DNA from: Chloroflexota bacterium
Lineage (GTDB): Bacteria > Chloroflexota > Limnocylindria > Limnocylindrales > CSP1-4
Length of the DNA stretch: 64,000 nucleotides
NCBI GenBank assembly: GCA_003169735.1
Contig: PNAP01000025.1
Location: forward strand, 179-64,178
Direction: 5' to 3'
Shown here: positions 43,950 through 50,127 of the stretch, in pieces
How the letters are laid out: each line of letters opens with the position of its first letter
How positions within the stretch are numbered: position 1 is the stretch's first letter
Made by a program: the position numbers and the translations under genes
The notes under the pieces: model-generated
The model's database searches: none
What the model was told of the DNA's origin: nothing
What the model saw: only the letters and a program-made list of their open reading frames with translations

Positions 43950-44003
43950 CTTCGATTCGTGGCGGGTCGCCGCCGAGTGGCGGGTCGCCGCCGAGTGGCG
44001 GGT
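43950..44003. repeat. Three tandem 18-bp repeats (GTGGCGGGTCGCCGCCGA) between convergent sseA and serine-hydrolase genes
   Basis: Read directly from the sequence. Each unit contains the GGCGG/CCGCC mini-hairpin. Confidence 0.7.
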
Positions 44004-44179
44004 CGCCGCCGCGTCACGCGTGTCTCCAAATGGGCACCTGAGGGCCATCGTTTCGCCGATTCGACTGGTGTCCTTCCACATGCGCGCCGTGCAACGCATC
44101 TGGCGAGAGGTGGCGGAATCGTGGCTCTGAGATGCCCATCTGGCGGGACGTGGCTGGCCAGCTCCCGGGCCTGAGCGGC

Positions 44180-47130: not shown

Positions 47131-47478
47131 ATGACCATCAAATGGGTCAAGAGCGACCCGCTCGTCATGAACGGGGAGCCGTTCTGCTACAACACGCGGC
47201 TGACCGTCCGCAACCTGCTCGAGATGCGCGCCAACGGGCTGACGCCCTCGCAGATGCTCGCCCAGAGCCCAGAGCTGCGGCCGGTCGGTATCGCCGAGGC
47301 ATTCCGCTTCGCCGCTGAGAACCGGGAGCGCTACGCGGAGTTCTTCGCTGCCGACGGTTCGCTGGAGGGGCCTGGTTTCACGGCCGCGGGGGCGGCGCGC
47401 TTGCCCGAGCATCTGCGCTCGATGGCCGGCATCGTGGTCAGCGTGGGCGAACCGGACCCGGCCGGCGCCATCGGCTGA
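47131..47478 (+). CDS. DUF433 domain protein
   Basis: N-terminal region DPLVMNGEPFCYNTRLTVRNLLEMRANGLTPSQMLAQSPEL matches the DUF433 pattern. Confidence 0.6.
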   Translation: MTIKWVKSDPLVMNGEPFCYNTRLTVRNLLEMRANGLTPSQMLAQSPELRPVGIAEAFRFAAENRERYAEFFAADGSLEGPGFTAAGAARLPEHLRSMAGIVVSVGEPDPAGAIG

Positions 47479-48100
47479 GGCAGGGAGTGGCGTGTCCGCG
47501 GACGCGTCCCGGCGAGTGGTCCTCGGCGGAGTGGGAGCCGAACGATCGGCCCGGCCGCACGCCGCATTCCCGTCAGACAGTCCTCGGCAGAGTGCAAAGC
47601 GAGTGCTCGTCCGATTCGATGGCATCCACTCGCCGAATCGACCGCCGCCGGAGCGTGGGTCCCGCGACTCTGCCCGGTTTCGACACCGGCGCGGCGGCGG
47701 CGACCCGCTTATCACTCTCTCCAGTCATGGATGACGGGAGCGCAACCGGGGAGGGAGGGTTCTCGCGCCCGTGTCCGGCGGCGCGGGCTCGTGACCAGCT
47801 GCGCGCGCTCGTGACCAGATTCAAACGCAGGTAGCGTTCGGCGGCGCGGAGCGGTCGGAACACCGCGGATCAGCGTCCGAGATCGGGTGCGAACGAGCGA
47901 CGACGCCCAACTCCACGCTCACAGCAGTACCCCGATGCCGCCTCGGCGCCCGGTCTCGGGGCGGCATGCGGCCGACTGCCACCCGGGTTTGCGTCTGGAC
48001 CGAAACGGTCGTTGGTGCACGCGTGGCGGCGTGGCGCTGAGCGGGTCAGTCTGCAGCCGGGTGCTAGGATGCCCCGACGCAGCTCCCTGAGGAACCCTGG

Positions 48101-48442
48101 ATGACCGACACCATCACGACCGAGACCGCGACCGCGACCGAGACCGTCAGCGTGGCCGACCCGCAGGCGCGCGCGACCGAGCTGGCCATCCTCGATGCGC
48201 TGCGCAGCGTCGTCGATCCGGAGATCGGCATGAATGTCGTCGAGCTCGCACTCATCAAGCAGATCGTGGTTGGCCCGGAAACCACCGAGATCCGGATGAT
48301 CCTGACGACGCCGTTCTGCCCCTACGCGGGATCGATGATCGCGCAGGTCAAGGAGGCGACCGAAGAAGTGGTCGGGCACGAGGTCAAGGTGACCCTCCTG
48401 GCCGAGCGATGGGACCCGCGCGAAGCGGGCCTCGTCTGGTAG
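48101..48442 (+). CDS. DUF59 (MIP18/SufT-like) Fe-S cluster assembly protein
   Basis: VVDPEIGMNVVELALI...ILTTPFCPYAG is the FeS_assembly_P signature. Confidence 0.8.
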   Translation: MTDTITTETATATETVSVADPQARATELAILDALRSVVDPEIGMNVVELALIKQIVVGPETTEIRMILTTPFCPYAGSMIAQVKEATEEVVGHEVKVTLLAERWDPREAGLVW

Positions 48443-48482
48443 TCGACTCGTAGCAGGCACCCCCCGCACGAGCCGCGCCACC

Positions 48483-48551
48483 GGCGCGAAGCGCGCCCCC
48501 GGCGCGAAGCGCGCCCCCGGCGCGAAGCGCGCCCCCGGCGCGAAGCGCGCC
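48483..48551. repeat. About 3.8 tandem copies of an 18-bp repeat GGCGCGAAGCGCGCCCCC, in frame with the downstream PduO-type reading frame
   Basis: Read directly from the sequence. Each unit is a GGCGCG/CGCGCC hairpin, and a degenerate copy precedes the array. The array translates as (GAKRAP)n in the adenosyltransferase frame. Confidence 0.7.
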
Positions 48552-48698
48552 ACTCGTCCCGCCATCGCCACGAGCGTCGTCGCGACGGGGCGCGGCGACG
48601 ACGGCACGACCGGGCTGCTCTTCGGCGGCCGCGTCGAGAAGGATGACCCGCGGACCGAGGCCTACGGCACGATCGATGAAGCGGTCGCGGCGCTTGGA

Positions 48699-49235
48699 TT
48701 GGGGAGGGCGGAGATCGGCGAGCTTGCCCTGGCCGGCCGGTCGTCGGACGAGCTGCGGCGCCTCGACGCGATCCTGGTGATCCTCCAGCGTGGCCTCTTC
48801 GTCGCCGGCAGCGAGTTGGCCGCGAATCCCGAGGCATGGGATCGGCTCGAGGACCGCGTGACCCGCGTCGACGAAACGATGCTCCAGGAGCTCGAGACCG
48901 CGCTCGCCGAGTACGAGTCACGCATCACCATGCCGAGGGAGTTCGTGGTTCCCGGCGCTTCGCGCCTCTCCGCTGCGCTGGAACTTGCCCGCACGATCCT
49001 GCGCCGCGCCGAACGCCGCGCGGTGACCCTCCGGCGAGACGGCCGCGTCCCCGGGGAGTGGCTCCTGCCCTATCTCAATCGCCAGGCCGACCTCGTGTGG
49101 GTCCTCGCCCGCGCCGCCGAACAGGCCGAGGAACGCGTTACCGTATTCGCCCGCGAGGGCCGCGCCCGGCCACTCCGCCGATCCGCCGCGAACGCGGGTG
49201 ACCCCAGCAAGGAGCGACTGGACGAGCATCGCTAG
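48699..49235 (+). CDS. PduO-type ATP:cob(I)alamin adenosyltransferase; conserved N-terminus encoded upstream of any canonical start
   Basis: The frame is open from 48393. Residues encoded at 48564..48698 (IATSVVATGRGDDGTTGLLFGGRVEKDDPRTEAYGTIDEAVAALGLG) match the PduO N-terminal ATP-binding region, yet the first ATG/GTG/TTG in frame is the TTG at 48699. Possible non-canonical start, pseudogene or sequence error. Confidence 0.55.
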   Translation: MGRAEIGELALAGRSSDELRRLDAILVILQRGLFVAGSELAANPEAWDRLEDRVTRVDETMLQELETALAEYESRITMPREFVVPGASRLSAALELARTILRRAERRAVTLRRDGRVPGEWLLPYLNRQADLVWVLARAAEQAEERVTVFAREGRARPLRRSAANAGDPSKERLDEHR

Positions 49236-49320
49236 ACTCTTGCGGTCGGGCCGGACGCGGGCGCCCGATACCGGGAGAGATTCACCCCTACGCCCGATCA
49301 AAGAAAAGGAACCAACCACC

Positions 49321-50127
49321 GTGTTCGATCGAGATCGCAACCAGCCCGACCGCTACCAGGGCCCCAAGCCGGCCGGACAGCCAGTCGGTGGCGCGCCGAC
49401 CCAGGGCGGCATCACCGGCGGGGTCGTCATCAACGGCCAGCGCGTCGGCATCAACCAGCGCGAAGGCCTCCTGACGATGAGCTTCGTCTGGATGTTCGCG
49501 GCGCTGCTCCTGAGCGCCTTTGCCGCCTACTTCGTCTATTCGAACCCGAGCATCCAGACCTTCGTGGTCAAGTGGTACTTCGCGCTCATCATCGGTGAGC
49601 TCGGTCTCGTGCTGGCCATCAGCTTCGGCATCAACAAGATCGGCGCGCTGCCGGCGCTGGCGCTCCTGTTCGTCTACGCCCTGCTCACCGGGCTCACCAT
49701 CGGTGCCCTCGTCCAGGCCTACGTCGGCAAGGGCGATCCCACGGCCATGGCCGCGGTCGCATCGTCGTTCGTCGGTGCCTCAGCGGTCTTCGGTGGAGCG
49801 GCGCTCTACGGCTTCGCCACCAAACGAGATCTGACCGGCATCGGCGGCATCCTCTTCATGGGCCTCATCGGGCTCATCGCGATGTCGTTCGTGCAGGTCT
49901 TCTTCTTTTCCGGGAACAGCACGTTCAACCTGGTCATCGGCGCCGTCGGCGTGCTGATCTTCACCGGCCTGACTGCCTACCACGTCCAGGCCCTCAAGAA
50001 CGGCAAATTGAGCCGGGTCCAGAACGCCCAGTCGGCCTCGGTCGTCGGGGCGCTCGTGCTCTACCTCGACTTCATCAACCTGTTCCTGATGATGCTGCGC
50101 ATCTTCGGCGGAGGCGGGCGCAGCTGA
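49321..50127 (+). CDS. Bax inhibitor-1 / YccA family membrane protein
   Basis: Seven TM helices with the BI-1 family C-terminal pattern. GTG at 49321 with AAGGAA 9 nt upstream; ORF 49198 is the alternative longer start. Confidence 0.7.
   Translation: MFDRDRNQPDRYQGPKPAGQPVGGAPTQGGITGGVVINGQRVGINQREGLLTMSFVWMFAALLLSAFAAYFVYSNPSIQTFVVKWYFALIIGELGLVLAISFGINKIGALPALALLFVYALLTGLTIGALVQAYVGKGDPTAMAAVASSFVGASAVFGGAALYGFATKRDLTGIGGILFMGLIGLIAMSFVQVFFFSGNSTFNLVIGAVGVLIFTGLTAYHVQALKNGKLSRVQNAQSASVVGALVLYLDFINLFLMMLRIFGGGGRS

Follow-up and report, generated by a model that had tools for sequence, protein, structure and literature searches.

The gene for a PduO-type ATP:cob(I)alamin adenosyltransferase, found in a 64,000-nucleotide (nt) stretch of the genome of an uncultured soil Chloroflexota bacterium (contig PNAP01000025.1, assembly GCA_003169735.1; the whole stretch is referred to as the window), has no canonical start codon upstream of its ATP-binding motif, and its frame runs through a tandem array of 18-base-pair (bp) hairpin repeats. 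We propose, with a probability of roughly 0.5, that this is a very young start-loss allele: a change in the length of the spacer behind the upstream, SufT-like gene would have caused the loss, leaving an intact open reading frame (ORF) that is silent or yields trace product, and the repeat would be unrelated to it.

The frame in question (48393..49235, plus strand) opens behind the TGA at 48390 and stays open as far as the stop codon at 49233..49235. A sequence scan bore out what had been noted in a previous, sequence-only reading of this DNA, namely, that the first in-frame ATG, GTG or TTG is the TTG at 48699, with none earlier in the frame; from 48443 to 48642, moreover, a triplet scan found none of these codons in any frame. 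ATG, GTG and TTG together make up 5.0% of the codons in the coding frames of the window, and from this share the chance of 102 start-free codons can be calculated as ~0.5%, and that of the 45 truly coding N-terminal codons alone as ~10%. The start-codon gap is real and beyond trivial chance. The same condition, no in-frame canonical start upstream of the motif, was found at four of about 70 orthologous loci, namely, the window and the loci L013, L015 and L039, all of which belong to one genus. The features on which the argument draws are as follows.

48101..48442, plus strand: SufT-like gene (DUF59, FeS_assembly_P), ending in ...ERWDPREAGLVW and then TAG
48409..48453, plus strand: frame-1 mini-ORF, read from the sequence as ATG GGA CCC ... 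CTG GTA GTC GAC TCG TAG
48436..48442, plus strand: CTGGTAG heptamer, the overlapped start site of the family, in frame 1 (the enzyme is in frame 0)
48443..48467, plus strand: spacer from the upstream stop to the ACG, 25 nt (1 modulo 3), with no Shine-Dalgarno sequence
48468..48470, plus strand: ACG at the downstream (type A, see below) start site, M/V-S-R-A-T-R; first near-cognate candidate start
48474..48551, plus strand: 18-bp tandem hairpin array (Tandem Repeats Finder: 4.3 copies, 98% matches, score 149)
48564..48566, plus strand: ATC, a conserved Ile seven codons before TGRGDDGTT; second near-cognate candidate start, giving a complete domain
48564..49235, plus strand: main part of the ORF for the PduO-type ATP:cob(I)alamin adenosyltransferase, intact, with 223 codons before the stop
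48699..49235, plus strand: TTG-start ORF from the ORF list, 178 residues (protein P0002), without the ATP-binding N-terminus

Identity of and selection on the enzyme

The identity of the product, as first proposed from the sequence, was upheld by Pfam, TIGR00636 and fold. First, the Pfam family Cob_adeno_trans (PF01923) matched with 142.8 bits, against a cut-off of 24, over profile positions 1-170, and since its position 1 falls on frame residue 63 (48579), the ATP-binding N-terminus lies upstream of the only canonical start. Second, the product read from 48564 scored 121.5 bits with TIGR00636, the NCBIfam equivalog-domain model for PduO-type adenosyltransferases, which has a cut-off of 108.45 and gives 122 to 128 bits for the orthologs; the 178-residue TTG form scored 82.7 bits, below the cut-off, and matched profile positions 46-166 only, positions 1-45 being gone. 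Third, the sequence TGRGDDGTT at 48585..48611 fits the motif T-x-x-G-D-x-G-x-T, whose residues are invariant across 38 homologs, and aligns to the YvqK and Bacillus cereus enzymes. The 40-residue peptide given for this region in the sequence-only reading stands, although it occupies 48564..48683 and not 48564..48698 as then recorded.

In an AlphaFold model, the core is predicted with a local distance difference test score (pLDDT) above 90, and the first 55 residues are of low confidence. Comparison of this model by Foldseek gave template-modelling (TM) scores of 0.81 to 0.91 against 3ke5, 2nt8 and 3ci1; when 6d5x and 6wgs are included, the probability is 1.00 and the target-normalised TM score 0.76 to 0.91. 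By sequence and predicted structure, the window gene belongs to the ordinary PduO-type cob(I)alamin adenosyltransferase genes and is structurally intact.

The ratio of non-synonymous to synonymous substitution rates (dN/dS) of the 45 codons 48564..48698 is about 0.09 (0.03 to 0.11), at a dS of ~0.7 to 0.9. Judged by these values, the codons that precede the TTG at 48699 are under strong purifying selection, which makes the 178-residue call wrong. Over the whole gene, dN/dS among the start-less species is 0.16 to 0.24; for the main part of the window ORF, from 48564 on, it is 0.17 to 0.24.

Start sites and surroundings of the gene

Start sites were compared manually and with MAFFT, using L009, L013, L015, L039, L040 and L122. 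The order of the SufT-like gene followed by the adenosyltransferase gene is kept at about 60 related loci, and on this survey the pair is conserved across Limnocylindria-type Chloroflexota, the upstream gene in relatives ending in ...ERWDPxxAGLxW and then a stop. The names of the homologs place the genome itself among uncultured Limnocylindria. Two start architectures occur in the family. In the overlapped one (type B), an NTG overlaps the upstream stop, as NTG-GTG-A or NTG-GTA-G, and its first base, N, is the wobble base of the penultimate codon of the SufT-like gene, so that synonymous drift upstream alters the start codon downstream. Among the ~60 loci, the in-frame NTG is GTG in 11 cases, TTG in two and CTG in six, and about one third of the called homologs have MV, VV or LV at the N-terminus, which agrees with the prediction from the overlapped architecture. 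Read from its arrangement, the overlapped start in relatives is one that gives translational coupling. In the downstream architecture (type A), which most species in the genus of the window use, an ATG or GTG followed by AGC CGN stands 6 to 21 nt past the stop, with the N-terminus M/V-S-R-A-T-R-x-S-I-A; those type A starts with 21-nt spacers have Shine-Dalgarno duplex energies of -5.7 to -7.2 kcal/mol.

At the overlapped site, GTG-GTA-G is in frame in L017, L121 and L122, and CTG-GTA-G is in frame in L013 (G002), L015 (G006) and L039 (GCA_039924985.1, JBDSZU010000224.1). In these last three loci the gene is intact and under purifying selection, with no in-frame ATG, GTG or TTG, and the sole plausible start is the overlapping CTG (gtCTGGTAG); the NCBI annotation of L039 uses a different, far-upstream CTG. 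A by-eye count over the tail codons T-S-R-A-T-R-P-A/S across the clade gave ~8 synonymous against 3 non-synonymous changes. Because the tail changes are mostly synonymous and dN/dS is as low as given above, the gene of the sister species is evidently alive and translated from upstream of the tail, most simply from the overlapped CTG.

In the window this arrangement fails. The overlapped CTG at 48436 is out of frame because the 25-nt spacer is not 2 modulo 3, as are those of the overlapped-start relatives (8 nt in L015, 14 nt in L039, 14 nt in L122); reading in frame 1 from this CTG ends at the TAG at 48451, whereas the overlapped start is in frame with the enzyme in L013, L015, L017, L039, L121 and L122. 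L040 has a frame relation like that of the window (34 nt) but carries its own GGAGG, 5 nt and ATG right before the ACG. An insertion of one base or a deletion of two within 48443..48450 would join the mini-ORF to the enzyme frame, and would thereby reconnect both the CTG at 48436 and the ATG at 48409. It is a CGA codon for Arg in the SufT-like gene that gives rise to the latter ATG; selection for this CGA was considered and rejected, as CGA is found there in 6 of 80 loci and makes up 10% of the Arg codons in the long ORFs of the window. With the overlapped CTG out of frame, and an ACG where type A relatives have their ATG, the start is missing.

The ACG at 48468 and the ATC at 48564 are, as far as the sequence can tell, the only sensible non-canonical start candidates. 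L015, L039, L040 and L122 have the same ACG, followed by AGC, AGT or ACC and then CGC GCC, and since L122 carries it beside a canonical upstream GTG, it is probably an inherited Thr codon and no freshly mutated start. An equivalent of the ATC is present in most orthologs. No Shine-Dalgarno sequence was found at either codon or at the TTG at 48699, the duplex energies being -3.3, +1.2 and -2.4 kcal/mol, respectively, compared with -5.7 to -9.5 kcal/mol at stand-alone starts of the relatives and about -5.7 kcal/mol at the neighbouring genes of the window. In the predicted RNA fold both candidates lie inside stems, with the ACG paired to CUCGU at 48447..48451.

The ACG is 25 nt and the ATC 121 nt past the upstream stop. 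A spacing of ~20 nt nearly abolishes termination-reinitiation in Escherichia coli and Haloferax volcanii, and post-termination scanning over at least 20 nt is rare if it occurs at all (PMC10666635); stable structure just past a stop, in turn, insulates the downstream gene (PMC7518266). Relative to AUG, initiation in E. coli amounts to ~0.1 to 3% from AUC and CUG and ~0.1 to 1% from ACG, and ACG initiation gave an N-terminal Met by mass spectrometry (systematic measurements of Hecht et al., bioRxiv 10.1101/063800).

The SufT-like gene itself was matched by Pfam PF01883 with 55.5 bits, the NCBIfam SUF_assoc and SufT matches being weak and under cut-off. In the window, positions 47131-50127 encode a DUF433 protein, the SufT-like protein, the adenosyltransferase and a Bax1-I/YccA-like membrane protein, and this order is also seen in related contigs, namely, L039 and a JGI contig that carries protein P0022. 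In the P0022 contig the called start of the enzyme is a GTG that lies two codons ahead of TG and 53 nt beyond the upstream stop; here, too, a canonical start further upstream may be lacking. The ~620 bp upstream of the SufT-like gene (47479-48100) hold no convincing ORF, and no sigma-70-like promoter was found there; neither a promoter nor an intrinsic terminator was found near the locus. Nor was a cobalamin riboswitch found, the single gathering-level Rfam match in the 64 kb being a tRNA, and Rfam gave nothing at E ≤ 1 in 47300..48700. Fusion of the enzyme to the upstream gene by frameshifting or readthrough was rejected, as the sequence shows no slippery site and relatives differ in their frame relation.

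The 18-bp hairpin array

The hairpin repeat was confirmed, with a correction to the 3.8 copies first counted: there are four full units and a fifth CGCGCC arm. In the enzyme frame the array reads GAKRAP GAKRAP GAKRAP GAKRAT. Each unit folds into a 6-bp GC stem with a 3-nt loop, and the arms also pair across units as a long ladder, with a predicted RNA fold of -94.4 kcal/mol and z-scores against shuffled sequences of -2.4 for RNA and -1.6 for DNA. The unit holds GCGAAGC, the sequence of an extraordinarily stable DNA mini-hairpin (PMC13037366). Two ORFs cross the repeat on the minus strand (47870..48607 and 48322..48921), but since they overlap two conserved genes of the plus strand, they were judged spurious.

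Alignment places a 72-bp in-frame insertion (~48483..48554) between ...CGC GCC ACC and CGT CCC GCC ATC, and this insertion is absent from the aligned relatives. Going by the flanking sequence, the fifth arm is the pre-existing CGCGCC and the new GGCGCG its reverse complement; the arrangement suggests an origin by templated inverted duplication, followed by slippage. Since the four units are identical, the expansion would be recent or ongoing. We also observed a 41-nt ungapped similarity (68%) between the SufT-like gene's 3' end (48391-48431) and the stretch 48457-48497, which covers the tail and the first repeat unit; the two have the 10-mer GCGCGAAGCG in common. Such a likeness may be fortuitous where DNA is rich in GC, or it may hint that the new half-unit was templated from 66 nt upstream.

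A dispersed palindromic family, of the repetitive extragenic palindrome (REP) or bacterial interspersed mosaic element (BIME) kind, was rejected, as the array occurs at a single locus. Specifically, a 15-mer of the repeat (at most one mismatch) gave nine matches in the 3.06-Mb genome against six for a reversed control, four of the nine being the array itself; one single copy elsewhere, on contig C37, resembles a chance palindrome in an unrelated stretch. A two-unit pattern had no match in the genome contigs, and the exact 3'-junction pattern none in the metagenome contigs. Tandem arrays with a period of 9 or more, no fewer than 2.8 copies and matches of 90% or above number 11 in 357 kb (~1 per 32 kb). 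Among them are an independent 18-bp array of 3.7 copies, encoding (AETPGT)n, in the N-terminal tail that follows the GTG-GTA-G start of L121 (625-691; ena:ERZ27248695 k141_1478228) and a 3.9-copy 18-bp array at the 3' end of the adenosyltransferase gene of L084 (1832-1901). A second 18-bp hairpin array in the window (43959-44011), GTGGCGGGTCGCCGCCGA in 2.9 copies of 100% identity with a 5-bp stem and a tetraloop, lies in a convergent intergenic region, just past a long GC hairpin. The N-terminal tails of the orthologs range from 2 to 55 residues in length and are repetitive in some cases, and, as these sequences suggest, the variable enzyme tails evidently tolerate such in-frame expansions.

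Three roles that the sequence-only reading had contemplated for the repeat find no support in these data. With 18 nt to the unit, a multiple of three, the frame is the same at every copy number, which excludes an on/off frame switch; for a phase-variable contingency locus more broadly, copy number provides no frame shift and there is no promoter-like site nearby. Pseudogenisation driven by the repeat is not supported, as the insertion is in frame and downstream of the lost start, and relatives share the start-less state without the repeat. An assembly error inside the repeat, finally, could not restore a start, given the absence of ATG, GTG and TTG from all frames of this region.

Weighing of the explanations and comparison with known systems

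The start-loss allele that we favour would have come about as follows. A change in spacer length would have moved the overlapped CTG at 48436 and the ATG at 48409 into the wrong frame, at a locus whose other possible site, further downstream, reads ACG just as it does in the nearest relatives; the enzyme ORF would thus be left without canonical start, Shine-Dalgarno sequence or overlap. Separately, a self-complementary 18-bp GC unit would have arisen beside the pre-existing CGCGCC and grown to four identical copies within a length-variable tail, presumably through hairpin-promoted replication slippage, which would make the array a recent bystander, in frame at any copy number. Any enzyme would be made in traces only, from the ACG at 48468 or the ATC at 48564. 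The order of these events and the present expression state are what we infer, while the anatomy of the locus, its differences from the relatives and the statistics of selection were observed directly; the exact indel history of the spacer is beyond reconstruction at a dS of 0.7 to 1.0.

Several observations weigh against a gene that has lost its expression. Relaxed selection on the window branch was not detected, either by dN/dS or by a relative-rate count, in which 15 amino-acid changes are unique to the window and 14 to the sister L039 (chi-square 0.03); terminal-branch omega, as estimated from pairwise values, is ~0.27 for the window gene and ~0.22 for its sister. The window enzyme keeps all 69 columns that are invariant across the 38 homologs, and its model score is on par with those of the orthologs, with no decay visible. 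With the invariant residues kept and such a score, the gene could still be functional. The CTG-only start of the sister species, as read from their sequences, shows moreover that weak initiation is tolerated in the genus.

These same observations favour a functional gene expressed at a low level from a near-cognate start, which is the part of the sequence-only reading, non-canonical initiation, that we retain, with odds well short of even. Initiation at the ACG would give a 255-residue protein with a disordered (GAKRAP)4 tail, and initiation at the ATC one of 223 residues with an N-terminus of normal length. Low expression may suffice for a cofactor-tailoring enzyme, and the low rates measured for ACG, AUC and CUG in E. 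coli (bioRxiv 10.1101/063800) could provide it; three sisters apparently live with CTG only, NCBI having given L039 a CTG as well. The low dN/dS of the N-terminal 45 codons points in the same direction, as do the SRAT and RPA codons that flank the insertion, which are intact, with clade changes that are mostly synonymous. A long tail would be no obstacle, given the range of tail lengths in orthologs and a modelled tail that is of low confidence and presumably flexible. However, both candidates lack a Shine-Dalgarno sequence, are predicted to lie in stems and stand beyond the coupling range reported (PMC10666635), and, unlike in the sisters, the candidate codons of the window are away from the overlapped coupling site. 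The conservation of the ACG, furthermore, gives no argument for a role as start, as it also occurs in L122 with a canonical GTG.

Less probable, and on balance unlikely, is an error in assembly or consensus, with one base missing or two extra in 48443..48450 and the true start at the CTG at 48436 or the ATG at 48409. A change of this kind in a stretch of 8 nt would restore both the frame relation of the family and a canonical ATG, and the source is a 3.06-Mb metagenome-assembled genome of 124 contigs, 92.65% complete and with 2.24% contamination. Yet the same truncated 178-residue product, P0002, which is the only near-identical database entry, is recorded on five contigs, and no longer near-identical protein was found among 5.8 billion clusters; a search for contigs encoding P0002 returned none, from which records of the window's own genome were possibly left out. 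The stretch 48443..48450, in addition, is neither homopolymer nor repeat, and the restored tail would be unusually long.

That the hairpin array is itself functional, as a copy-number switch, a terminator or insulator, or an aid to ACG initiation by ribosome stalling, seems improbable. The array sits 12 nt past the ACG, its perfect GC hairpins have the GCGAAGC mini-hairpin core (PMC13037366), and stable structures past a stop can insulate translation (PMC7518266). Against this, the unit cannot alter the frame, the array is unique to the species of the window, no terminator-like site was found, and the z-scores are modest; the frequency of similar arrays, also in tails of orthologs with normal starts, points to neutral slippage. 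A slightly more doubtful variant holds that the array may keep a post-termination or loosely bound ribosome over the ACG, as a bacterial form of repeat-associated non-AUG initiation yielding a (GAKRAP)n-tailed enzyme, in which case copy number would tune expression and not frame. Least of all can the TTG at 48699 be the true start of a functional 178-residue protein: no other canonical start is in frame, and gene callers chose this one, but N-terminal selection and the TIGR00636 score, with the TGRGDDGTT region missing, effectively refute it on sequence grounds, there is no Shine-Dalgarno sequence, and the proposal that orthologs might start at its equivalent fails, as all begin upstream of the ATP-binding motif.

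The main value of the case is for annotation, since gene callers cut the window enzyme to a 178-residue fragment, while three sister species offer no canonical start and NCBI took a far-upstream CTG in one of them. It also illustrates how drift can alter the start codon of a coupled gene, with the upstream wobble base leading to CTG under GC pressure, and how small spacer indels force start-codon turnover. If functional, the CTG-only and start-less alleles would be natural instances of sustained near-cognate initiation in Chloroflexota; otherwise, the window holds an ordinary young start-loss allele beside a neutral tandem repeat.

Compared with known PduO-type adenosyltransferases, represented here by Lactobacillus reuteri PduO (2NT8/3CI1), B. 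cereus (3KE5), Mycobacterium tuberculosis (6WGS) and human MMAB (2IDX), the window enzyme is alike in domain, N-terminal ATP-binding motif and helical-bundle fold. However, in characterised PduO enzymes 2 to 4 residues precede the motif, whereas the window gene has no canonical start and a long, basic, repeat-containing potential tail. In the repeat-associated non-AUG translation of FMR1, an ACG lies a short distance 5' of an in-frame GC-rich hairpin repeat, as it does in the window (PMC13270972). That mechanism needs eukaryotic 5'-to-3' scanning, which bacteria do not perform, so that the likeness is one of analogy.

Near-cognate starts are known in bacteria, the AUU of E. coli infC being an example, and the ACG and ATC of the window are each one base from ATG. 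In the natural cases known, the site remains accessible and has its Shine-Dalgarno sequence, and the weak start of infC serves autoregulation; the window sites, in contrast, have no such sequence and are predicted to be structured. With respect to the repeat, mycobacterial interspersed repetitive units (MIRU), or variable-number tandem repeats (VNTR), are small intergenic tandem repeats inside operons, and REP and BIME elements are palindromes. The window array is likewise short, GC-rich, hairpin-capable and placed between co-oriented operon genes, although it occurs at one locus, has a unit of 18 bp instead of 40 to 100 bp and, unlike those elements, lacks start or stop codons of its own within the units. 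A further parallel is the overlapped, translationally coupled SufT-adenosyltransferase start of related Chloroflexota, with which the window shares the gene pair, the ...AGLVW end and the CTGGTAG heptamer, here out of frame and, with C as the wobble base of the upstream Val/Met codon in this genus, reading CTG.

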